Assembly: GCA_964570585.1 (NCBI GenBank)
Contig: CAZMYR010000003.1
Span: forward strand, 22,749-86,748
Source of the DNA: an uncultured Planctomycetia bacterium
GTDB taxonomy: Bacteria > Omnitrophota > Gorgyraeia > JABMRG01 > JAFGKX01
Length of the DNA: 64,000 bases
Reading direction: 5' to 3'
Part shown: positions 39-60,579 of the stretch, one piece after another
How positions within the stretch are numbered: the stretch's first letter is position 1
How the letters are laid out: every line of letters starts with the position of its first letter
Program-made: the position numbers and the translations under genes
Notes under the pieces: generated by a model
Database searches by the model: none
Seen by the model: the letters and a program-made list of their open reading frames with translations, nothing else
Told to the model about the DNA's origin: nothing

Positions 39-181
39 GAAGCAAAGTTTGTGTCTGAGCCCGAACACATCGTAAGATGTGAGGGCGAGTTAAACTTTGC
101 CGAAGTTCATAAAATGCGTGCCCGAAGGGCAAAAATTCCAGTTACGAATAGGTGATTGCTATGTTTTTGAGATTGCTTCGC

Positions 182-1447
182 TCACTTCGTTCGCTCGCAA
201 TGACGTCGCGGATCGGTTATTTTTCCTGTTAACGCAGATGCAGCTACTGTCGCCGGTGAAGCTAAATAGATAAAAGCATTCGGGTTGCCCATTCTGCCTT
301 TAAAATTTCTATTCGCTGTAGATATTACAACCTCACCATCGGAAGGAACACCATCGTGAGTGCCTACGCAGGGCCCGCATCCCGGGGTAACTACACTACC
401 TCCGGCTTCAATAAATGTCCGGATAATCCCTTTTTTCATAGCCTCCAGATAAATCTGTTTTGATGCAGGCGCTATAACCAATCTTACATTATCAGCTATT
501 AGATTGCCTTTAAGTATTTTAGAGGCTATCATGAGATCTTCTAATCTTCCGTTAGTACATGTTCCGATAAAGGCTAAATTTACCGGTTTTCCTTCAACGT
601 CTTTAACATTGGATACATTATCGACTGTATGGGGTTTAGATATCTTCGGAGTAAATTTGCTGACATCATATCTTTTTACGCTAATATAATCGGCATCTTT
701 ATCCGGATAGACTTTCCTTTTAATCTTTTTGCCTGTTTTCTTAAGCCAGCTAACCACTTTTTCGTCAGGATACATAATGCCACATTTGGCTCCCATTTCA
801 ACAGCCATGTTTGAAATAGTGAAGCGCGCATCAACAGTTAAAGCTTCTATTGCCTTACCTGTAAATTCAATTGAATTATAGGTACAGCCATCAGCGCCTA
901 AATCCCCTATAATATGCAAAATTATATCCTTTGAATAAACACCCTTTGGCAATTTGCCATCTATTATTACCTTGATAGTCTCTGGAACTTTAAACCAGTT
1001 TTTACCGCTGGCTAATGTTATAGCTAAATCTGTAGAACCGAAACCTGTCGCCAATGCCCCTAATGCGCCGTAAGTACAGGTATGAGAATCTGCCCCTACT
1101 ACTAAATCACCTGGGAGCACATTTCCGGATTCTAATATTACCTGGTGGCATACACCACAGCCTATATCATATAAGCGCAGCTTATTTCGAGCAGCAAATT
1201 TCCGCATTTTGGCATGCACTGCCGAAACCCCTATATTGGGTGAAGGGGCGCTGTGGTCGATGACCATACAAAATCTTTTTCTTGCTGTTAACTTTTTTGC
1301 TCCCAGTTTATGCAAAGCATCTATGATAAGAGCGCTGGTCCCATCCTGACCAAAACAAAAATCCACCTTGGATAAGGCATAATCACCCGCCTTTAAGTCT
1401 CTGCGCGAATGTTCGCTTAATATCTTTTCCGCTACTGTCTTGCTCAT
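182..1447 (-). CDS. leuC: aconitase-family large subunit (3-isopropylmalate dehydratase / homoaconitase LeuC-like, about 420 aa short form)
   Basis: 421 aa ORF with Fe-S dehydratase motifs (GxGxCH..., GTCTNGR, PGCGPC); no small subunit within the window. Confidence 0.7.
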   Translation of the reverse strand: MSKTVAEKILSEHSRRDLKAGDYALSKVDFCFGQDGTSALIIDALHKLGAKKLTARKRFCMVIDHSAPSPNIGVSAVHAKMRKFAARNKLRLYDIGCGVCHQVILESGNVLPGDLVVGADSHTCTYGALGALATGFGSTDLAITLASGKNWFKVPETIKVIIDGKLPKGVYSKDIILHIIGDLGADGCTYNSIEFTGKAIEALTVDARFTISNMAVEMGAKCGIMYPDEKVVSWLKKTGKKIKRKVYPDKDADYISVKRYDVSKFTPKISKPHTVDNVSNVKDVEGKPVNLAFIGTCTNGRLEDLMIASKILKGNLIADNVRLVIAPASKQIYLEAMKKGIIRTFIEAGGSVVTPGCGPCVGTHDGVPSDGEVVISTANRNFKGRMGNPNAFIYLASPATVAASALTGKITDPRRHCERTK

Positions 1448-4783: not shown

Positions 4784-4901
4784 CTTTTACTCCCGTCTTT
4801 TAATGGTTAGTTGTAAGTTATAAGTCGTAAGTTATAAGTTTTTTTCGGCCTTCAATTCGAATTTTAGCTTAAAACTTAAAACTTAAAACTTAAAACTTTT
4901 G

Positions 4902-8062: not shown

Positions 8063-8162
8063 CTTTTTTTAGTACCGTTTACGGTTTCAAAGGGGTAAGT
8101 GTCCCCTAATTCATTCTTTGCTGGGGGGCATTTACCTCTTTGAAACTGTAAACGGTACTTTC

Positions 8163-10247: not shown

Positions 10248-10652
10248 CTACCAAACGTGACAGAGAATTTCTCCACCAATCTTAATATCTCTACATTCTT
10301 TGTCTGTTCTAATGCCCTTTGATGTCGACACAATGGCGATGCCTATCCCTCCTAATACAGATTTGACCTGGTCTGATTTTTCATAAATCCTTAAGCCTGG
10401 CTTAGAAATCCTTTTAAGATTACTTATCACAGGAGTTTTCTGTTTATCTTTACCATATTTTAGATAAATTCTTAATATTCCCTGTTTGTTATCTTCTATT
10501 TTTTTGAAATTTCTAATATAACCTTCTCTTTTTAATATTTGGGCTATCTGTTCTTTAATATTTGACGAAGGACAATCTACATTTGCCTTTCTGGCTTTCA
10601 ATGCATTTCTTATTAATGTTAAGAAATTGGCTATCGGATCTGTCATGCTCAT
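10248..10652 (-). CDS. rpsH: 30S ribosomal protein S8 (start trimmed to MSMTDPIA)
   Basis: N-terminus matches S8 MSMQDPIAD; GGAG RBS upstream; track extension runs into palindromic element A1. Confidence 0.9.
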
Positions 10653-10662
10653 TACTTTCTCC

Positions 10663-10750
10663 ATGTTGGTGCCATGCACTGCGGTGCCACCCTACGTGGC
10701 AAAACTGTATATTTAAAAGGTAGGGTGGCACCGCAGTGCATGGCACCATT
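10663..10750. repeat. palindromic element family A, copy 1: 28-bp perfect arms TGGTGCCATGCACTGCGGTGCCACCCTAC around a 24-nt loop
   Basis: read directly; fills the rpsN-rpsH spacer; second copy at 13147-13234 has the loop inverted. Confidence 0.85.
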
Positions 10751-10752
10751 TC

Positions 10753-10938
10753 TCACCAACTTGCCTTAGTAACGCCTGGTATTTCACCACTGGATGCTAA
10801 TTCCCTAAAACAAATTCTACACAATTTAAATTTCCTAATGTACCCTCTAGGCCTACCGCACCTTTGACAACGATTGTAAGCCCTCACTTTAAACTTAGGT
10901 TTCTTTCTTTGTTTTTCTATTAACGCTTTCTTAGCCAT
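10753..10938 (-). CDS. rpsN: 30S ribosomal protein S14 type Z (zinc-binding)
   Basis: 61 aa with CxxC...CxxC. Confidence 0.9.
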
Positions 10939-10944
10939 ATCTCT

Positions 10945-11490
10945 CTACTTTTCTTTAAGGGGCATACCCAGATATTTTAAAAGTTCATAAGCTACATCTT
11001 TGGTAGTCTTTGTTAAGTTTACAGTAATATCCATGCCCAGGGTTTTATAAACTTTATCCGGCTCAATCTCAGGAAATATTAGTTGTTCAGAAAGGCCAAA
11101 TGTATAATTGCCATGCCCGTCAAAACTATTAGCAGGCAATCCTTTAAAATCTCTAATTCTTGGTATTGCCACGTTGACAAGCCTGTCTAAAAATTCATAC
11201 ATTCTGGCTCTTCTTAAAGTAACCATACAGCCAACAGATGAACCCTTTCTGATCTTAAAATTAGAAATTGCTCTTTTGGCTTTAGTAACAACAGGCTTTT
11301 GCCCTGTAATTATTGCCAGGTCTTTCTGGGCCTCTTCAACTATTTTTGTATCGTGAGCTCCTGCCCCTATACCCATATTTACCACAATCTTTTTTATGCG
11401 AGGCACCTGAAAGCGATTCTTATAGCCGAATTTCTGCACTAAAGAAGGCACTGCCTCTCTTCTATATCTTTCTAATAACCTTGGGACCAT
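10945..11490 (-). CDS. rplE: 50S ribosomal protein L5
   Basis: 181 aa, conserved. Confidence 0.95.
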   Translation of the reverse strand: MVPRLLERYRREAVPSLVQKFGYKNRFQVPRIKKIVVNMGIGAGAHDTKIVEEAQKDLAIITGQKPVVTKAKRAISNFKIRKGSSVGCMVTLRRARMYEFLDRLVNVAIPRIRDFKGLPANSFDGHGNYTFGLSEQLIFPEIEPDKVYKTLGMDITVNLTKTTKDVAYELLKYLGMPLKEK

Positions 11491-11496
11491 AATTTA

Positions 11497-11805
11497 TCAC
11501 AATATCTCTTCACATTTTTTACAATAACGTGATTTTTTACCATCGCTTAAAACAGTAATCCCAATTCTTGTTGGTTTGTTGCACCTTGGGCAAATAACTT
11601 TTAAGTTAGAAATATTAATGGCGGCCTCTTTTCGGACTATACCACCTTGTTGAGCTTGTTGAGTTTTGCGAGTATGACGCTTGATAAAATTTATCCCTTC
11701 TACGATTACCCTGTTTTCTTTAGGAAAAACCCGTAAGACCTTGCCGGTTTTGCCCTTATCTTTACCCGCCACAACTCTTACTTGATCATTTCTTCTTATT
11801 CTCAT
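11497..11805 (-). CDS. rplX: 50S ribosomal protein L24
   Basis: KOW domain. Confidence 0.9.
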   Translation of the reverse strand: MRIRRNDQVRVVAGKDKGKTGKVLRVFPKENRVIVEGINFIKRHTRKTQQAQQGGIVRKEAAINISNLKVICPRCNKPTRIGITVLSDGKKSRYCKKCEEIL

Positions 11806-11810
11806 CCGGG

Positions 11811-12179
11811 TTATATAACCTCCGGTGCAAGCGATACTATCTTTGCAAAACGTTTCTCTCTTAGTTCTCGTGCAACAGGACCAAATATTCTACTGCCACG
11901 CGGATTACCCGCTTCATCTATAAGGACACAGGCGTTCCCATCAAATTTTAATGTCGAACCATCCTTCCTCCTTATGGCATTGCGGGTTCGAACTATTACC
12001 GCTTTAACCTTCTCACCCTTCTTTATTAAAGAATCAGGAGTTGCTTCTCTTACGCTACCGCTTACAACGTCTCCAATATCTGCATATTTTTTTTCAGAAC
12101 GATGGACAACGCCGATACAACGCACGACCCGCGCCCCGGTATTATCCGCAATCTCTAGCATGCTTCTAGGATATATCAT
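11811..12179 (-). CDS. rplN: 50S ribosomal protein L14
   Basis: 122 aa, highly conserved. Confidence 0.95.
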
Positions 12180-12214
12180 TCTCTCTCTACAAACTACGAA
12201 CTACCAACTACAAA

Positions 12215-12472
12215 CTATTTGATTACCTCTATTATGCGATAGCGTTTCCCTTTTGATAAAGGCCTGGTTGGCAGTATTTTAACCTTATCTCCAATCTTGG
12301 CAACATTTTTAGGGTCATGGGCCTTAACCTTACGTCTATGCTTTATAATCTTTTTATACAGTTTATGAGTAGTGAAATTCTCCAACCTTACCACTGCTGC
12401 TTTATTCATCTTATCACTTACTACTATGCCGATTTGAGATTTAAGCTTTTTCCTTTTTATCTGTTTTTGCAT
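12215..12472 (-). CDS. rpsQ: 30S ribosomal protein S17
   Basis: GIVVSDKMNKAAVV motif; 5' end overlaps rpmC by 32 nt, so true start may lie downstream. Confidence 0.85.
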   Translation of the reverse strand: MQKQIKRKKLKSQIGIVVSDKMNKAAVVRLENFTTHKLYKKIIKHRRKVKAHDPKNVAKIGDKVKILPTRPLSKGKRYRIIEVIK

Positions 12473-12656
12473 AACTTGCCTCTTTTAAAATAGTTAAAAT
12501 CCTGGCTATATCTTTCCTTGTTTGAGAAATTCTAGATGGCTTCTCCAGCTTGCCCATTTTGGCATAAGTGCGCAAATTTATCAGTTCTTTCTTTAAGGAG
12601 AACTGTTTAGATGCAAGTTCTTCCATGGTCATATCTCTTAATTCGTCGGGCTTCAC
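12441..12656 (-). CDS. rpmC: 50S ribosomal protein L29 (GTG start)
   Basis: MKPDELRDMTMEELASKQFSLKKELINLR aligns with L29. Confidence 0.85.
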   Translation of the reverse strand: MKPDELRDMTMEELASKQFSLKKELINLRTYAKMGKLEKPSRISQTRKDIARILTILKEASYAKTDKKEKA

Positions 12657-12722
12657 GTTTTATCTTCCTTTGTTTCTTACAACTTAAAACTTACGACTTA
12701 CAACTAACCGAGCGTAGCGAGG

Positions 12723-13139
12723 TTATACGTGTTTTCTCCCAATGAGCTTTGTCTTAAAAGGTATTTTGCTTGCAGCAAGCCTAAGAGCGTCTTTAGCTAC
12801 CTCTCCGGGTACTCCTTCAACTTCAAAAAGAACTCTGCCCCTTCTTATTACAGCTACCCAAAACTCAGGCATCCCTTTACCTTTGCCCATTCTTGTTTCT
12901 GCTGGTTTCTTGCTAACCGATTTATCCGGAAAAACTCTTATCCAGACTTTCCCTCCTCCTCTTAAATGACGGGTAAGCACTACCCTGGCTGCTTCAATCT
13001 GGGTATTCTTAAGCCAGGCATTCCCTAAAGCCTGCAGTCCATATTCTCCAAAGCAGACCTTACTACCAGCAACAGCCAAGCCTTTTCTTCGTCCTCTTTG
13101 CGACTTGCGATATTTTACTCTTTTAGGCATCAATACCAT
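12723..13139 (-). CDS. rplP: 50S ribosomal protein L16
   Basis: [12 protein letters not shown] start, conserved. Confidence 0.95.
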
Positions 13140-13146
13140 AATAAAC

Positions 13147-13234
13147 CCATGTTGGTGCCATGCACTGCGGTGCCACCCTACCTTTTAAATATACAGTTTT
13201 GCCACGTAGGGTGGCACCGCAGTGCATGGCACCA
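13147..13234. repeat. palindromic element family A, copy 2 (same arms as copy 1, loop reverse-complemented); occupies the whole rpsC-rplP spacer and abuts the rpsC stop codon
   Basis: read directly; arms identical to 10667-10748. Confidence 0.85.
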
Positions 13235-13930
13235 TTACTTACGTTTTGGTTTTACGGCTTGCGTCTTAAGCTTTTCGCTATCTTTATTTTCATCCCTTTT
13301 ACCAGGGAGTATCTCGCCTCTGCATACCCATACTTTAACACCAATTAGACCATAAGCGGTATGTGCTTCACAAAAGCCGTATTCTATATCTGCTCTAAAT
13401 GTCTGTAATGGGACCTTCCCTTCCTTGTAAACCTCTGAGCGGGAGAGCTCAAGGCCGCCAAGTCTCCCAGAACATCTTATTTTTACCCCCTCTGCGCCGT
13501 GATTCATAGTCATCTGCACCGCTTTTTTCATGACCCTCCGAAAAGCTACCCTTTTCTCTATTTGAAAAGCGACGTTTTCAGCAATTAGCTGAGCATTTAC
13601 CTGTGGGTCTTTAACCTCTTTGATATCTATAAAAACATCCTTATTTGTTACGTTGGTCAAATCATCTCTTAATCTATCTATATCTGCTCCCTTCCTACCG
13701 ATTATGATTCCCGGCCTGGCAGTATGAATGATAGCCCGTATTCTGTTGCTGGCTCTTTCAATCTCTATATTTGATATCGCAGCAGAAAAATATTGCTTTT
13801 TAATATAATCTTTTATTTTAAGATCTTCGTGAAGAAACTCAGCAAAATTCTTTGATTTCGAAAACCATCTGGATTTCCATGGCTTTATATATCCGACTCT
13901 TAAACCATATGGATGAGTTTTTCGTCCCAA
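13235..13930 (-). CDS. rpsC: 30S ribosomal protein S3
   Basis: KH domain, 231 aa with K-rich tail. Confidence 0.95.
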   Translation of the reverse strand: MGRKTHPYGLRVGYIKPWKSRWFSKSKNFAEFLHEDLKIKDYIKKQYFSAAISNIEIERASNRIRAIIHTARPGIIIGRKGADIDRLRDDLTNVTNKDVFIDIKEVKDPQVNAQLIAENVAFQIEKRVAFRRVMKKAVQMTMNHGAEGVKIRCSGRLGGLELSRSEVYKEGKVPLQTFRADIEYGFCEAHTAYGLIGVKVWVCRGEILPGKRDENKDSEKLKTQAVKPKRK

Positions 13931-14366: not shown

Positions 14367-14459
14367 ATTAGGATTGCTTCGGTTGCCTTCGGCAACCTCG
14401 CAATAAATTCGGACTTATCACTTACGTCGTCCTACGGACTCCGTAAGTGATGTCCTCAT

Positions 14460-15604: not shown

Positions 15605-15895
15605 TTACGTGCTCACCACCTCTATAACGTCGCCTTCTTTTAGTGTGACCATGGCTTTCTTCCAACCGGATGTATGTCCCAATTTATATCTGACTCTACG
15701 AGGTTTCCCTTTCACATTCATGACATTAACAGATACAACTTTTACTTTATGTATATCTTCAACTGCTTTCTTTATCTGTATTTTATTTGCTAATTTATCG
15801 ACGAGGAAAAGATACTTATTCTGCCGCATTAATCTTGTGCCTTTTTCAGTCCTTAATAGGGACTTTATAATATCATAAGATGTCTTTGTCTTCAT
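15605..15895 (-). CDS. rplW: 50S ribosomal protein L23
   Basis: 96 aa, conserved. Confidence 0.9.
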
Positions 15896-15967
15896 CCCGC
15901 ACCTTTTATTTATTCATCCCGGACCTTTTTAATATTACTTTTGAATATTTTAAAGGTGCGGGATTCA
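15893..15967. repeat. palindromic element family D, copy 1 (ATCCCGCACCTTT arms); its arms contain the rplD stop codon and the rplW start codon
   Basis: read directly; second copy at 57671-57748. Confidence 0.8.
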
Positions 15968-17308: not shown

Positions 17309-17332
17309 GTTTCCTCGATTTAGCTGGTTTCG

Positions 17333-17398
17333 TATCTAGTATCTAGTATCTAGTATCTAGTATCTAGTATCTAGTATTTCCGAGATACGATTCACGAG
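17333..17398. repeat. (TATCTAG)x6 tandem array followed by (GAGATACGA)x2, forming complementary arrays; rplC-rpsJ spacer
   Basis: read directly. Confidence 0.85.
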
Positions 17399-17423
17399 AT
17401 ACGAACAACGAAGCGCTTATCTC

Positions 17424-17735: not shown

Positions 17736-18935
17736 CTACTCTATTATCTCCGTAACAACTCCTGCACCTACCGTCCTGCCGCCTTCTCTTATAGCAAACC
17801 TTAATTCTTTTTCCATGGCGATAGGCGTTATAAGAGATCCTTCTAAGGTTACGTTGTCACCCGGCATTACCATCTCAGTGCCTTCCGGAAGTTTTATTGT
17901 CCCGGTAACATCGGTGGTTCTAAAATAGAATTGGGGACGATAGCCGTTGAAGAAGGGGGTATGCCTTCCGCCTTCTTCTTTGCTTAACACATAAACCTTT
18001 GCTTTAAATTTAGTATGCGGGGTTATGGAACCTGGCTTGGCTAAGACCATACCTCTTTCTAGGTCTTTCTTTTCTACGCCACGAAGAAGTATTCCTACGT
18101 TGTCTCCGGCTTGACCTTCATCCAAGAGCTTCCTAAACATCTCAACCCCTGTGACTACACTCTTTTTGGGGGCAGGACGCATACCTACTATCTCTATATC
18201 TTCGTTTATCTTGACTTTTCCTCTTTCTATTCTACCTGTTGCTACTGTGCCTCTTCCGGTTATGGAGAAGACATCTTCTATAGCCAAAAGGAAGGGCTTA
18301 TCAATGTCTCTTTTTGGAGTAGGGATGTATTCATCCACTGCCTTTAAAAGCTCCATGATTGGCTTGGTGGCTTCATTACCAGGGTCTCCCTCTGCTTCCA
18401 TGGCTTTTAAAGCACTTCCTCTTATAATGGGGATTTTGTCTCCCGGAAATTCATATTTTGAAAGAAGTTCCCGGACCTCAAGCTCTACTAAATCTAGGAG
18501 CTCAGGGTCATCAACCATATCTACCTTGTTTAAGAATACAACTATATATGGGACGTTTACCTGGCGGGCTAAGAGGATATGCTCTCTGGTCTGAGGCATA
18601 GGTCCATCAGCTGCTGATACCACCAAAATGGCGCCGTCAGCTTGAGCTGCTCCGGTAATCATGTTCTTAATGTAATCGGCATGCCCAGGGCAGTCTATGT
18701 GGGCATAATGGCGGTTTTCGGTTTCATATTCAACGTGGGCAATGGCTATTGTTATTCCTCTTTCTTTTTCCTCTGGGGCATTGTCTATTGAGTCAAAAGT
18801 CCTGACATCAGCCATACCTTTTTTATTTAAGACCATAGTTATAGCCGACGTAAGACAGGTCTTGCCATGGTCTACGTGGCCTATGGTACCGATGTTTACG
18901 TGTGGTTTACTCCTTACATATTTTTCCTTTGCCAT
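17736..18935 (-). CDS. tuf: elongation factor Tu, copy 1 (start trimmed to MAKEK; track used an upstream TTG)
   Basis: GHVDHGKT motif; identical to copy 2 except the last codons. Confidence 0.95.
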
Positions 18936-18966
18936 TTTCTCCTCCTCTGTAGCGTGAGTTTTGCCC

Positions 18967-18987
18967 CTTTGCTTTCCCAAACGGTGC
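18967..18987 (-). promoter_or_regulatory. family C leader motif (sense GCACCGTTTGGGAAAGCAAAG) in the fusA-tuf spacer
   Basis: same 21-mer found at 34812-34832, 37408-37428 and 37462-37482; partial versions at 29951-29976 and 31739-31770. Confidence 0.5.
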
Positions 18988-29930: not shown

Positions 29931-29950
29931 GTTTCTCTCGCTTTAGGAAT

Positions 29951-29976
29951 GCACCGTTTGGAATCCCAAACGGTGC
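29951..29976 (-). promoter_or_regulatory. perfect 11-bp hairpin GCACCGTTTGG-AATC-CCAAACGGTGC in the rplL-rpoB spacer (family C); candidate attenuator
   Basis: read directly; the analogous E. coli spacer carries the rplL-rpoB attenuator. Confidence 0.5.
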
Positions 29977-29981
29977 TTTCT

Positions 29982-31728: not shown

Positions 31729-31738
31729 TTTGGTATAT

Positions 31739-31770
31739 GCACCGTGCTACTTTGCTTTCCCAAACGGTGC
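31739..31770 (-). promoter_or_regulatory. family C motif (GCACCGTG...TTTGCTTTCCCAAACGGTGC) in the rplK-rplA spacer
   Basis: read directly. Confidence 0.45.
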
Positions 31771-31774
31771 TATT

Positions 31775-32937: not shown

Positions 32938-33048
32938 ATAAATTTTACTTCGTAAAATTTAGTCATAAGTCGTAAGATGTAAGTTTTAAGTACTTCTTAC
33001 TACTTACTACTTATGACTTACAACTATGAATTCCGTAAAGCGGAATTC

Positions 33049-33431: not shown

Positions 33432-33581
33432 CTACTTTGCTTCTTTATGAACAGTTCTTTTTCTGCAGAACTTACAATATTTTTTTAATTCTAATCTATT
33501 AGTTACATTCTTCTTATTCTTTACGGTAGAATACCATCTATTTTTGCATTCGGGACATGTAAGTAGAATTTGCTCCTGCAT
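33432..33581 (-). CDS. rpmG: 50S ribosomal protein L33 (zinc ribbon, 49 aa; not in ORF track)
   Basis: hand translation [49 protein letters not shown]; start ATG overlaps the tuf stop (TAATG). Confidence 0.75.
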
Positions 33582-34780
33582 TATTCCATTATCTCCGTAA
33601 CAACTCCTGCACCTACCGTCCTGCCGCCTTCTCTTATAGCAAACCTTAATTCTTTTTCCATGGCGATAGGCGTTATAAGAGATCCTTCTAAGGTTACGTT
33701 GTCACCCGGCATTACCATCTCAGTGCCTTCCGGAAGTTTTATTGTCCCGGTAACATCGGTGGTTCTAAAATAGAATTGGGGACGATAGCCGTTGAAGAAG
33801 GGGGTATGCCTTCCGCCTTCTTCTTTGCTTAACACATAAACCTTTGCTTTAAATTTAGTATGCGGGGTTATGGAACCTGGCTTGGCTAAGACCATACCTC
33901 TTTCTAGGTCTTTCTTTTCTACGCCACGAAGAAGTATTCCTACGTTGTCTCCGGCTTGACCTTCATCCAAGAGCTTCCTAAACATCTCAACCCCTGTGAC
34001 TACACTCTTTTTGGGGGCAGGACGCATACCTACTATCTCTATATCTTCGTTTATCTTGACTTTTCCTCTTTCTATTCTACCTGTTGCTACTGTGCCTCTT
34101 CCGGTTATGGAGAAGACATCTTCTATAGCCAAAAGGAAGGGCTTATCAATGTCTCTTTTTGGAGTAGGGATGTATTCATCCACTGCCTTTAAAAGCTCCA
34201 TGATTGGCTTGGTGGCTTCATTACCAGGGTCTCCCTCTGCTTCCATGGCTTTTAAAGCACTTCCTCTTATAATGGGGATTTTGTCTCCCGGAAATTCATA
34301 TTTTGAAAGAAGTTCCCGGACCTCAAGCTCTACTAAATCTAGGAGCTCAGGGTCATCAACCATATCTACCTTGTTTAAGAATACAACTATATATGGGACG
34401 TTTACCTGGCGGGCTAAGAGGATATGCTCTCTGGTCTGAGGCATAGGTCCATCAGCTGCTGATACCACCAAAATGGCGCCGTCAGCTTGAGCTGCTCCGG
34501 TAATCATGTTCTTAATGTAATCGGCATGCCCAGGGCAGTCTATGTGGGCATAATGGCGGTTTTCGGTTTCATATTCAACGTGGGCAATGGCTATTGTTAT
34601 TCCTCTTTCTTTTTCCTCTGGGGCATTGTCTATTGAGTCAAAAGTCCTGACATCAGCCATACCTTTTTTATTTAAGACCATAGTTATAGCCGACGTAAGA
34701 CAGGTCTTGCCATGGTCTACGTGGCCTATGGTACCGATGTTTACGTGTGGTTTACTCCTTACATATTTTTCCTTTGCCAT
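33581..34780 (-). CDS. tuf: elongation factor Tu, copy 2 (start trimmed to MAKEK)
   Basis: identical to copy 1 including the 5' leader. Confidence 0.95.
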
Positions 34781-34811
34781 TTTCTCCTCCTCTGTAGCGT
34801 GAGTTTTGCCC

Positions 34812-34832
34812 CTTTGCTTTCCCAAACGGTGC
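34812..34832 (-). promoter_or_regulatory. family C leader motif upstream of tuf copy 2
   Basis: identical to 18967-18987. Confidence 0.5.
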
Positions 34833-37407: not shown

Positions 37408-37482
37408 GCACCGTTTGGGAAAGCAAAGTAGCAAATGTAGGGATTACGGGGACACTTGCCCCTTTGCTTTCCCAAACGGTGC
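37408..37482 (+). promoter_or_regulatory. 21-bp perfect hairpin made of two inverted family C motifs, immediately 5' of the rpmB RBS
   Basis: read directly. Confidence 0.55.
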
Positions 37483-37742: not shown

Positions 37743-37885
37743 AAAAAATCCTAAATCCTAAACTCGAAATCCTAAACAAACCCAAAACTCTAAACCCAAA
37801 TGTTCAAAACAGATTGCATAACAATTATGTTTTGAGTTTTGTATTTTGAGTTTGTTTAGAGTTTAGGGTTTAGTGTTTAGGGTTT
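37743..37885. terminator. long imperfect palindrome built from CCTAAA/TTTAGG repeats; bidirectional terminator between convergent rpmB and otsB, right arm overlaps the otsB 3' end
   Basis: read directly. Confidence 0.5.
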
Positions 37886-38667
37886 ATGTCCGTTAATTTC
37901 TCTAGAAATCCAAACACCTCTTTTGTATCCGTCGCATAATATTCAGCGTTTGAAACTGTATTTTTTCCTCCCACAAAGATTGTAATGCCTTTCTTTTTCA
38001 ATCTCTTAAAAGCGCTTTCATCGGTCTCGTCATCGCCTAGATAAATAGGTAAAATCCTCCTACGCTTATTCTTTTTTCTTTTTAATAAATAATCGACGAG
38101 GCTGCCCTTGTCCCATTTAATTGGAGGGCGCACTTCGATTACTTTCTTACCGTTGGTTATTTTTACTTTTTTACTTTCAATATACGGAGTAAGTGTAGTA
38201 ATAACTGAATGTTTTAGTTTTTTTATTTTTGCTCCTTTTACCATACGGTAATGCACGCTTAAGGTAAGCCCTTTGTCTTCAATAAAGGCGCCAGGAATTT
38301 TTCTGCATGCTGTTTTCAGTTTGGAAAAAAGTGGTGCCAGCCGCGAGTTTTTTTTAAAAAACTTGTGCCTGGCACCACTTTTTCCATTTTCTATCTCCAA
38401 CCCATGATTACCAGCTAAAGCTATGCCTTTTATTTTTATCTTTTGTTTTAATTGCTTAATTGAACGACCGCTTATTATCGCTATAGAGAATTTAGGATTT
38501 TTCATTAATTTAAGCAGGATAGATTTTGATTCTTTCGGTAAATTCGCTAATTCGGGCTTTTTAACAATTGGGGCAAGGGTGCCGTCATAATCCAGGAAAA
38601 GGTATATGTGGGGAGTTCTATTTATTTCTGCAAAGATTTTTCTGGAGTGTCGGAAGAGATACTTCAT
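37870..38667 (-). CDS. otsB: trehalose-6-phosphate phosphatase (HAD family)
   Basis: DYDGTL motif, 265 aa. Confidence 0.8.
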   Translation of the reverse strand: MKYLFRHSRKIFAEINRTPHIYLFLDYDGTLAPIVKKPELANLPKESKSILLKLMKNPKFSIAIISGRSIKQLKQKIKIKGIALAGNHGLEIENGKSGARHKFFKKNSRLAPLFSKLKTACRKIPGAFIEDKGLTLSVHYRMVKGAKIKKLKHSVITTLTPYIESKKVKITNGKKVIEVRPPIKWDKGSLVDYLLKRKKNKRRRILPIYLGDDETDESAFKRLKKKGITIFVGGKNTVSNAEYYATDTKEVFGFLEKLTDINPKH

Positions 38668-45207: not shown

Positions 45208-45229
45208 CTATTTACTCTCCCAGAGGTAA

Positions 45230-45274
45230 TTGGGACGTCCTGCAGGGGGGGCACCCTGCAGGACGTCCCCAACC
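45230..45274. repeat. palindromic element family B, copy 1 (GGGACGTCCTGCAGGG-N6-CCCTGCAGGACGTCCC)
   Basis: read directly; inverted copy at 51973-52018. Confidence 0.85.
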
Positions 45275-49814: not shown

Positions 49815-49868
49815 CGTTTAGCGTTTAGCGGATAGCGTTTAGCCGATGGGAAAACTATTCGCTATACG
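49815..49868. repeat. (CGTTTAGCG)-type tandem array with complementary CGCTAAA array; queH-ruvB spacer
   Basis: read directly. Confidence 0.7.
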
Positions 49869-51966: not shown

Positions 51967-52086
51967 CTAGCATGGTTGGGGACGTCCTGCAGGGAGGCAA
52001 CCCTGCAGGACGTCCCCACTACTTACATCAGTCTCCTGCTGAAGGATTATCTTCTCTCTTTTCGGCTTTGGGGTTTTGTTTTTCAT
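51967..52086 (-). pseudogene. duplicated 5' fragment of ruvB (first 17 codons, 52 bp identical to 50846-50897) fused in frame to codons from palindrome B; 39-aa ORF
   Basis: read directly; [20 protein letters not shown] versus Ruv[21 protein letters not shown]. Confidence 0.6.
51973..52018. repeat. palindromic element family B, copy 2 (inverted relative to copy 1)
   Basis: read directly. Confidence 0.85.
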
Positions 52087-53849: not shown

Positions 53850-53859
53850 AAGTATAGGA

Positions 53860-54000
53860 ACGTTTCCAAAATCAAAGAGGCAAATGTAGGAACGTTTCCA
53901 AAATCAAAGAGGCAAATGTCCCCATAAAGGGGACACTTGCCCCTTAGATTTCGGAAACGTTCCTGGGGACACTTGCCCCTTAGATTTCGGAAACGTTCCT
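53860..54000. repeat. composite direct and inverted repeats (AGGAACGTTTCCAAAATCAAAGAGGCAAATGT x2; GGGGACACTTGCCCCTTAGATTTCGGAAACGTTCCT x2) in the ruvC-ruvA spacer
   Basis: read directly. Confidence 0.8.
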
Positions 54001-57345: not shown

Positions 57346-57670
57346 CAGTTAGGAAAATTACTTTCTGTTCTGTGTATGAAATTAATTACAGGTGTGAAGT
57401 ATTTCAATATAAAACTAATTATAATAGCGGAGCACCAGTATTGTCAAGCAAAAAGGGATGGTCTTTTGTTGCACTGCGGAGAATGAGTTCTTTAACTTCT
57501 GATAGCCCAACAAATTGGGCAACTAACCATTCTTGTCCACGGTGATGTAATAGCAATGCACAGGGGAAGTTTCTACATAAATCAGCCAGGCCACTGGAGT
57601 ACTTATCTGTAATATCCTTGAGCCTGATGGTATATTCTGCAAGCTCTTTAATATTGCTGTGTTTTTGTTA

Positions 57671-57748
57671 TTCATCCCGCACCTTCCTTCATTCCCGCTT
57701 ACCTTCTTAATATTGCAAATTTGAATACAAAGAAGGTGCGGGATTCAT
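57671..57748. repeat. palindromic element family D, copy 2; right arm overlaps the stop codon of ORF 57745-58035
   Basis: read directly. Confidence 0.8.
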
Positions 57749-58035
57749 ATATTCATCTCCACTTTCTTTCTTAATCTATGTAAATCCTCCACTATCTTAT
57801 CAATGTTGACTACGCGTTTTATCTTAGGGAGCCCAAAGGCGACCATCCTCACCCTCGCCGGGCCTATCACACTTTTATTTATTGTGTCTTTATCAATCGC
57901 TGTTTGTTTTTGCCAGGCTTGTGTAATCACCGGAGTTACTGCACTAAAACCAGCAGCAAGCGCTGGTAACGCCTTTCCGTTTGACAAAACTTGAGATAAA
58001 ATAATTATAACGATGATAAATTTAATCAGTCTCAT
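57745..58035 (-). CDS. small secreted hypothetical protein (signal peptide plus about 70 aa)
   Basis: N-terminal hydrophobic signal MRLIKFIIVIIILSQVLS. Confidence 0.4.
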   Translation of the reverse strand: MRLIKFIIVIIILSQVLSNGKALPALAAGFSAVTPVITQAWQKQTAIDKDTINKSVIGPARVRMVAFGLPKIKRVVNIDKIVEDLHRLRKKVEMNI

Positions 58036-58422: not shown

Positions 58423-58553
58423 TTAAACTTCCGCTCTATTCTTTCGGCAGCCCGACTCTCCCAGACTCGTGGGACTCGTAGCTTTGCGTCCCATTCTTAC
58501 GAATGGTTTGCCTTTATCGAGAATTTCCTTTAAAAGAGCTTTTTGTTTCTACA

Positions 58554-58906: not shown

Positions 58907-59212
58907 ACACAAAACCTTTAGACTCCGCCCTGTTCAAATTGTTATAGGAGCTTCTGCTTTAAATCCAAACAAAATATTATCCTACAAAAGTAAAAACTAA
59001 AGGGGTGGACGCAGAGAGGAAAATAGGCGCTCGGGGTATCGTGGAGCGAGACATTAGAAATTTTTTACCAAATGTCTTTTTAGGATTTATGGCGAGTGAG
59101 ACGACGGAACTGACTCGCTACTTTCTAGCTAAAGAATTCCGTCAAGCGAACGAGCCATAAGTTCAAAAAGACGGCAAAAAATTTCAGTCTCGCGAAACAA
59201 TACCCTGAGCGC

Positions 59213-60373: not shown

Positions 60374-60388
60374 CTGCTTCTCCTTTGC

Positions 60389-60480
60389 AGTTCTAAAAGT
60401 TCTAAAGGTTCTAAAGGTTCTAAAAGTTCTAAAAGTTCTGAACTTTTGGAACTTTTTAACTTTTTAAACTTTTTTAACTG
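60389..60480. repeat. paired complementary tandem arrays (GTTCTAAARG)n / (AACTTTTT)n upstream of the IMPDH-family gene
   Basis: same family as 46776-46876. Confidence 0.9.
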
Positions 60481-60579
60481 TTTAACCTACAGATTATATC
60501 CACATGCAAAATTATGTCAATACAAATTGCTTACACAGATAATCGCAGATTTAGAACAGATGATAGCAGATATCCCTGA

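Follow-up and report, generated by a model that had tools for sequence, protein, structure and literature searches.

Why do two spacers of a ribosomal protein (r-protein) operon carry the same perfect hairpin, with the loop of one copy turned round relative to that of the other? The question is raised by a 64-kb stretch of contig CAZMYR010000003.1 (the window, to which all coordinates below refer unless a relative's contig is named), whose SecY, S3 and S8 proteins identify the host as a member of Candidatus Omnitrophota. The element concerned, which we term family A, lies in the rpsN/rpsH and rpsC/rplP spacers of the S10-spc operon, and was compared with the corresponding loci on contigs from relatives (labelled L followed by a number), the closest of which differ from the window at 4-7% of third codon positions and at 1-4% of first and second codon positions. 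Exactly reversed loops in the two copies, opposite loop orientations at orthologous sites, and gain, loss and replacement of the element among these relatives point to a young, clade-restricted, non-autonomous palindromic repeat of a REPIN- or MITE-like kind whose loop flips in place, an answer that we hold to be the probable one, with appreciable doubt.

Two copies of a perfect hairpin

A repeat search finds two 82-nt hairpins in the window, each composed of two 29-nt arms that are 100% complementary to one another and that enclose a 24-nt AT-rich loop. The two copies are themselves 100% complementary over their entire length (82/82 nt), the loops being exact reverse complements (24/24), and the arm TGGTGCCATGCACTGCGGTGCCACCCTAC is found four times, as two inverted pairs, where none is expected (none in 100 shuffles). 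GGTGCCA is repeated within each arm at a distance of 15 nt. On the sense strand, which is the minus strand for the S10-spc genes, the loop of copy 1 reads CTTTTAAATATACAGTTTTGCCAC, named the C orientation, and that of copy 2 is GTGGCAAAACTGTATATTTAAAAG, named the G orientation. The parts of the element are as follows.

10667-10748, minus strand: copy 1 of the element, in the rpsN/rpsH spacer, 82 nt
10667-10695, unstranded: arm of copy 1, reading TGGTGCCATGCACTGCGGTGCCACCCTAC on the plus strand, 29 nt
10696-10719, unstranded: AT-rich loop of copy 1, 24 nt
10720-10748, unstranded: second arm of copy 1, the perfect complement of the first
10663-10666, minus strand: ACAT tail on the sense strand, directly 3' of copy 1
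13153-13234, minus strand: copy 2 of the element, in the rpsC/rplP spacer, the exact reverse complement of copy 1
13153-13181, unstranded: arm of copy 2, 29 nt
13182-13205, unstranded: loop of copy 2, flipped relative to that of copy 1, 24 nt
13206-13234, unstranded: second arm of copy 2, 29 nt
13149-13152, minus strand: ACAT tail on the sense strand, 3' of copy 2

An earlier note on this DNA had described two palindromic copies with exactly reverse-complementary loops, which these figures bear out, but it gave the element as an 88-bp perfect palindrome with 28-bp arms. The arms are in fact 29 nt long and the hairpin 82 nt, the figure of 88 being reached by including a 6-nt flank (CCATGT on the plus strand) that is present on one side only. 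With this shared flank, copy 1 occupies 10661-10748 rather than 10663-10750 as had been proposed. Outside the hairpin the unit is therefore asymmetric, and reads (TAA)-29-nt arm-24-nt loop-29-nt arm-ACAT on the sense strand.

The genes that flank the two copies, which the same note had named correctly, and the stop codon that adjoins copy 2 are these.

10753-10938, minus strand: rpsN (S14, 61 aa), upstream of copy 1
10248-10652, minus strand: rpsH (S8, 134 aa), downstream of copy 1, with a GGAG ribosome-binding site beginning 4 nt past the stem
13235-13930, minus strand: rpsC (S3, 231 aa), upstream of copy 2
13235-13237, minus strand: rpsC stop codon TAA, adjoining copy 2
12723-13139, minus strand: rplP (L16), downstream of copy 2

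On the sense strand, the sites read TGA GAAA / element / ACAT GGAGAAAGTA ATG for copy 1 and TAA / element / ACAT GGGTTTATT ATG for copy 2. The claim that each copy abuts the upstream stop codon is thus correct for copy 2, which directly follows the rpsC TAA, and incorrect for copy 1, which starts 4 nt past the rpsN stop. The further claim that both copies end just before the downstream ribosome-binding site stands, the GG of that site being reached 4 nt (ACAT) past either of them. Similarly, the open reading frames (ORFs) annotated at 10555-10749 on the minus strand and at 13098-13355 on the plus strand are, as had been suggested, spurious translations of the element, which yield the same peptide from opposite strands. 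Every ORF of at least 150 aa in the window is read from the minus strand, and with the exception of one 2-kb step the GC skew is negative throughout. EF-Tu is encoded by two ORFs, at 17736-18980 and 33581-34825, each 414 aa long.

Turnover and loop orientation among close relatives

Four instances of the element are known in total, at two sites: the two copies in the window, one in L088 at rpsC/rplP and one in L168 at rpsN/rpsH. L088 is colinear with the window over 2.9 kb at 92.6% identity. The sequence data behind L088 are those of Ga0315549 and those behind L168 of DRR310879, and L089 and L169 belong to SDBU01. The contents of the two spacers in the window and its relatives are listed here.

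rpsC/rplP spacer, window and L088: family-A element
rpsC/rplP spacer, L086 and L087: 46 and 39 nt, without a hairpin
rpsC/rplP spacer, L089: a long hairpin of another family (GCACCGTTTGGGAAAGCAAAG...), with the S3 ORF running into it
rpsC/rplP spacer, L176: the mini-hairpin GCACCGTTTGGGATTTCAAACGGTGC
rpsC/rplP spacer, L002 and L003 (more distant): 15 and 10 nt
rpsN/rpsH spacer, window and L168: family-A element
rpsN/rpsH spacer, L169/L170: a hairpin of AGTCAGA-type heptamers
rpsN/rpsH spacer, L171-174: another sequence
rpsN/rpsH spacer, L003: 18 nt
rpsN/rpsH spacer, L002: an unrelated GC hairpin

L087 is without the element and L088 has it, though their rpsC genes differ by just 2.1%. Judged from these loci, gain, loss and replacement of the element take place within a very short time, which is a mobility signal of the kind that the earlier note had looked for. 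The two window copies are identical to each other, all six substitution events having occurred on the L088 or L168 lineages, and this identity would fit recent spread as well as conversion of one copy by another. Among close relatives, the C-terminal tail of S3 also varies in length and sequence (231-238 aa; window 13235-13260, L086-L089 and L176) because spacer elements sit on or over the rpsC stop codon, and the S3 ORF of L089 ends within a family-B element (described below).

The orthologous instances carry their loops in opposite orientations. At rpsC/rplP, the junctions of L088 match those of the window (TAA/ ... /ACATGGGTTTATTATGG), and its loop is opposite. At rpsN/rpsH, L168 shares the 3' junction (/ACATGGAGAAAGTAATG) and again has the opposite loop, the 5' junctions differing by 4 nt (TGG TAA/ in L168 versus TGA GAAA/ in the window). 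Apart from being flipped, the loops have changed at 1 of 24 positions in L168 and at 3 of 24-25 in L088, and the orthologous copies as a whole differ from those in the window by 2-5 changes. The outer frame (TAA ... ACAT) never flips among the four instances. One inversion per site would be the simplest account of the opposite loops, since otherwise several lineages must independently have received an insertion at the same 3' junction and, at rpsC/rplP, at the same 5' junction as well. Of the two possibilities that had been offered for the reversed loops, insertion in both orientations or inversion between the arms, the data hence favor inversion in place, with the proviso of the 4-nt difference at the 5' junction in rpsN/rpsH.

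The arms suggest a related process. In L088, a T>G change at arm position 9 is accompanied by A>C at the paired position, converting U-A to G-C so that the stem stays perfect, whereas L168 has a single C>T change that gives a U.G pair in the sense RNA; across the four instances, all 116 pair cells are paired (116/116). The compensated change in L088 is suggestive of the arm-to-arm copying that a flipping mechanism predicts. Among the known products of template switching are the patterns "loop inversion" and "compensatory mutation plus loop inversion" (PMC8794818), and loops of 5-50 bp that flip-flop between inverted repeats of 11-24 bp are widespread in plastid spacers (PMC12928735). The family-A element resembles these cases in having a 24-nt loop between 29-nt repeats that occurs as either reverse complement at orthologous sites, with a perfect stem and fixed flanks, and those features of loop inversion that can be checked in sequence (an exact reverse complement, unchanged length and bounding by inverted repeats) are all present. 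It differs in that the reported cases are resident hairpins in organelle spacers or RNA genes, and not an interspersed bacterial repeat in an r-protein operon. We propose that the element entered two intercistronic spacers of the S10-spc operon, where it lies behind or near a stop codon and 4 nt short of the ribosome-binding site that follows, and that the loop has since flipped repeatedly in place while the outer frame kept one orientation. Flipping could proceed by recombination between the 29-bp arms, by a template switch across the hairpin, or by conversion from an oppositely oriented copy, and the same process would copy one arm onto the other and so keep the stem perfect.

Several observations weigh against a mobile repeat with a flipping loop. 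Only two family-A copies are present in the 64-kb window. Neither the 185,579 species-representative genomes nor the JGI metagenome contigs searched contain the exact 22-nt core, a pattern that misses one-mismatch variants such as that of L088. No transposase domain, including Y1/RAYT, is found in the 20 window ORFs scanned, all of which lie between 35159 and 62097, and none of the four instances has, abutting both ends, a direct repeat that could represent a target-site duplication. Nor do L086 and L087 offer clean empty sites: their element-free spacers show further insertions and deletions relative to the occupied allele. Moreover, parsimony-informative sites in rpsC (13235-13930 compared with L086-L089) form a mosaic, with those shared by the window and L088 in the 5' part and those shared by the window and L086 clustered at the 3' end. 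This pattern indicates homologous recombination among these lineages, and because the rpsC gene tree is mosaic, the spacer and its element could have moved between lineages by homologous recombination and not by transposition. The covariation in the arms amounts to one compensated pair, which 133 of 500 shuffles equal and which is not significant. Finally, the loop orientations are read from metagenome assemblies and not from sequencing reads.

Other searches for copies gave a similar picture. A degenerate pattern of the arm has no match in viral contigs, blastn of the element against plasmids finds no match, and the element peptide has one irrelevant weak match among 1.84 billion representative proteins. 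Exact-protein look-ups give no record for the S14 of the window or for an S3 that is 100% identical to its own. The covariance model R1, run over 821 kb of loci, recovers just the four known instances as family members. A weak R1 match at 38329-38380 was rejected as a member, as it lies within the coding sequence of otsB (trehalose-phosphatase), which shows no insertion relative to PDB 5gvx; the outer arms of this otsB hairpin, TGGTGCCAGGCAC, match the L088 variant of the family-A arm. GAGAAA, which occurs near both sides of copy 1, was likewise rejected as a target-site duplication, since it is not adjacent to the 3' end of that copy and the other three instances lack it.

The lack of a target-site duplication would also suit a process with no inversion in place at all, in which a site-specific enzyme, for example one of the IS200/IS605 kind, cuts and pastes or copies the element, either way round, into a preferred target beside ACAT or TAA. 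ACAT is present on the 3' side in four of four instances and missing at that position in the element-free spacers of relatives, and L086 and L087 also have an ACAT within their element-free spacer. On the 5' side, (G)TAA is present in three of four (copy 2, L088 and L168, where it is the rpsN stop codon) and may be an insertion target or be supplied by the element; these counts represent only two independent sites. Recent insertion would, in addition, fit the identity of the window copies alongside the 2-5 changes that separate orthologous copies. Members of the IS200/IS605 group insert by a fixed tetra- or pentanucleotide and make no duplication, but their derivatives have distinct, imperfect, subterminal left and right hairpins and a fixed orientation to the target, whereas family A is a single perfect full-length hairpin found in both orientations. 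Such an enzyme would also have had to hit the same two spacers at the same 3' junction (and, at rpsC/rplP, at the same 5' junction) in three lineages, and no Y1 transposase is among the ORFs scanned in what is a small window. We consider independent insertion to be unlikely.

A further concern is that assembly may have produced the loop orientations, or chosen them arbitrarily where a population is mixed, since the orientation of a loop is poorly fixed when the inverted repeat around it is close in length to an assembly k-mer. The arms, at 29 nt, are near common k-mer sizes, Logan contigs use k = 31, and the flank differences imply that k of at least 33-37 is needed to assign loops to sites in a genome that contains both orientations; all of the sequences compared are metagenome assemblies. 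Nevertheless, the whole 82-nt element is shorter than a normal read, k = 31 still ties each flank base to the first base of the loop, and four assemblies produced by different pipelines run cleanly through the element. The loops also carry lineage-specific substitutions, which fits real copies that evolve separately. An artefact of this type is, in our judgment, very unlikely, and inversion in place remains the preferred explanation for the opposite loops.

RNA folding, transcription and other spacer hairpins

Folded as RNA, the spacer that contains copy 1 reaches -72 kcal/mol (z = -9.9) and that of copy 2 reaches -75 kcal/mol (z = -8.5); as single-stranded DNA, the hairpin is predicted at approximately -40 kcal/mol. 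An intrinsic terminator was rejected, as the 3' flank ACAUGG has no U-tract and a terminator scan finds nothing at the element, and the operon transcript should therefore read through. In the polycistronic mRNA, the element would form a 29-bp hairpin of about -70 kcal/mol without a U-tract, and from its predicted structure this perfect duplex is a likely substrate for RNase III or a likely barrier to exonucleases. No Rfam family reaches its gathering score at the element, and in a laxer E-value scan of 10600-13300 generic miRNA-precursor models overlap it at 17-39 bits, compared with thresholds of 50-100; on these scans, an r-protein autoregulatory leader or other known RNA family was rejected. 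Elsewhere in the window, a c-di-GMP-I-GGC riboswitch aptamer (RF03167) scores 72 bits, above its gathering score, at 58442-58521 on the minus strand and is followed by a terminator-like hairpin.

It is conceivable that the hairpin is itself selected, in the sense that a strong hairpin is needed between cistrons, that only the stem matters, and that sequences able to form one are recruited and exchanged. The roles proposed for such an RNA element are processing by RNase III, protection of the upstream mRNA from 3' exonucleases, and enforced translational coupling, in which ribosomes that terminate at the adjoining stop codon would unwind the foot of the stem. This idea gains from the fact that almost every window spacer of at least 35 nt folds into a hairpin, several other families being represented, and from the unrelated hairpins in the same two spacers of other close relatives. 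Constant placement, just past the stop codon and 4 nt before the ribosome-binding site, is also expected of it, as are the complete pairing across the four instances, the one compensated pair, and the one U.G wobble, which pairs on the sense strand only. Some relatives, however, manage with none, hairpins being missing from the rpsC/rplP spacer of L086, L087 and L002 and from both spacers of L003/L004. Since the loop occurs as either complement, no function can depend on the loop sequence of one strand, which rules out a loop-specific role for the RNA. In addition, the divergence of the element is close to the rate at third codon positions, arms and loop alike; stronger conservation of the arms than of neutral sites is not seen, and hence no strong purifying selection on the element. 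The compact genome, with its genes all on one strand, leaves spacers as the only places in which a repeat could survive, so that a location within the operon needs neither selection nor any other special explanation. We regard a selected RNA element as rather unlikely, even if the striking rate of hairpin replacement keeps alive the idea that some hairpin is useful at these positions.

A promoter scan raises a different functional idea. A weak sigma-70-like site, GTGCCA-N18-TATATT (9/12 matches), has its -10 box in the loop and GTGCCA in the arm, and its direction follows the loop, being antisense in copy 1 and sense in copy 2. The flipping loop might in this case act as a recombinase-free switch that toggles internal sense and antisense transcription in the r-protein operon. 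The G orientation would then start a sense transcript just inside the 3' arm, hairpin-free and with the ribosome-binding site of the next gene free, the C orientation would point the promoter antisense into the upstream gene, and the turnover of unrelated hairpins in these spacers would reflect selection on intercistronic control points. Weak promoter matches of this sort are common in the region (14 found versus 9.2 expected) and the box is degraded in L088, and we consider such a switch highly improbable. Reading TGGCAC-N-TGCA in the arm as a sigma-54 promoter was rejected because the GG-to-GC spacing is 9 nt and not 10.

The other spacer hairpins of the window and its relatives fall into several groups. 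Family B comprises full and mini hairpins at 8071-8159, 37408-37482, 53856-54000, 29931-29981 and 31729-31774, with arms like GCACCGTTTGGGAAAGCAAAG or AGTACCGTTTAC and the core GGGGACAnTTGCC; hairpins of this type fill the rpsC/rplP spacer of L089 and L176, and the L15/SecY spacer holds a 100-nt family-B element in the window compared with 21 nt in L001 and 3 nt in L175. Family C is present at 15894-15964 (the rplD/rplW spacer) and at 57669-57749, in the same orientation at both sites, as ATCCCGCACCTT ... AAGGTGCGGGAT with a conserved inner part. Family D, at 45229-45270 and 51977-52018, has a perfect 17-18-bp stem, GGGGACGTCCTGCAGGG, and a 6-nt loop. Hairpins with arms made of tandem, mutually complementary 6-8-mers are found in the window at 4784-4901, 17309-17423, 32938-33023, 37746-37885, 49815-49868 and 60374-60579 and in relatives at L169 1290-1391, L001 2195-2284 and L088 1275-1351, the units including (AAACCCT)n/(AGGGTTT)n, (GCGTATA)n/(CGCTAAA)n and (AGTCAGA)n. 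This unusual type of spacer filler is apparently common in the present Omnitrophota clade, and close relatives differ in it. The L23/L2 spacer is 1-3 nt long in the window compared with a hairpin of about 100 nt in L088 (30-125), one arm of which is identical at 35 of 35 positions to the motif CGTCATTGCGAGCGAACGAAGTGAGCGAAGCAATC at window positions 171-205; a related ATTGCGAGG...GAAGCAATC hairpin lies in the S19/L22 spacer of the window at 14367-14459. A nearly perfect hairpin of about 180 nt is also present at 58909-59100 within a 304-nt spacer, the whole of which folds at -110 kcal/mol.

Known repeat families and the meaning of the element

The earlier note had proposed a MITE-like or REP-like repeat tolerated in the S10/spc operon. 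As to the kind of element this is supported by identical copies in unrelated spacers and by presence, absence and replacement among relatives; it is qualified by the missing target-site duplication. Among known systems, REPINs offer a close parallel: they too are long hairpins in which a short spacer separates two inverted GC-rich units of some 30 nt (29-nt arms and a 24-nt spacer in family A), and they too are extragenic and make no target duplication. GTAG stands at the loop-proximal end of each arm (GTAGGGTGGCACC...), and a GTAG-type head is typical of REPs. REPIN hairpins commonly show compensatory changes (PMC3116915), with which the change at arm position 9 of L088, a single case that is not significant alone, may be compared. 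Unlike REPINs, family A has arms built as a direct repeat of GGTGCCA and not as small internal palindromes, is present as two copies in 64 kb and not as hundreds per genome, and combines a perfect stem with a loop that flips, a behavior that we have not found described for REPINs. REPINs are mobilised by RAYT transposases, whereas the ORFs scanned here contain none.

With MITEs, the element shares perfect terminal inverted repeats (29 bp, 100% complementary), and with these and the Correia elements of Neisseria (CREE) its small size, non-coding character, AT-rich core, position in transcribed spacers and presence or absence between close strains. It lacks TA or any other target-site duplication, a defining feature of MITEs, has a one-sided ACAT tail, measures 82 nt compared with about 100-155 nt, and has no related insertion sequence that is known. 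Hairpins in Correia RNA are bound or cut by RNase III, and Correia elements can create promoters (PMC2649163). REP/BIME and ERIC sequences are also palindromic repeats that are co-transcribed inside enterobacterial operons, but are unrelated in sequence, have imperfect stems and reach high copy numbers. To our knowledge, neither has been reported within S10/spc operons. REP hairpins are known to stabilise the upstream segment of an mRNA, as Newbury et al. reportedly found in 1987.

The element adds a palindromic repeat family, not described before, to what is known of Omnitrophota, an uncultured phylum in which mobile DNA has barely been studied. If its loop indeed inverts in place, it would provide a clean natural case in which a bacterial interspersed repeat undergoes both hairpin-loop inversion and arm-to-arm correction, observed at orthologous sites of genomes that diverge by a few per cent. 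The fastest-changing DNA of this lineage is that of the spacers in the most conserved operon of the cell, where unrelated hairpin families swap at the same positions. Such hairpins have practical effects, in that they break assemblies, give rise to spurious ORFs and alter the C-terminal tail of S3. They also raise the question of whether intercistronic hairpins are tolerated parasites or whether they may shape the processing of r-protein mRNA and the coupling of its cistrons.

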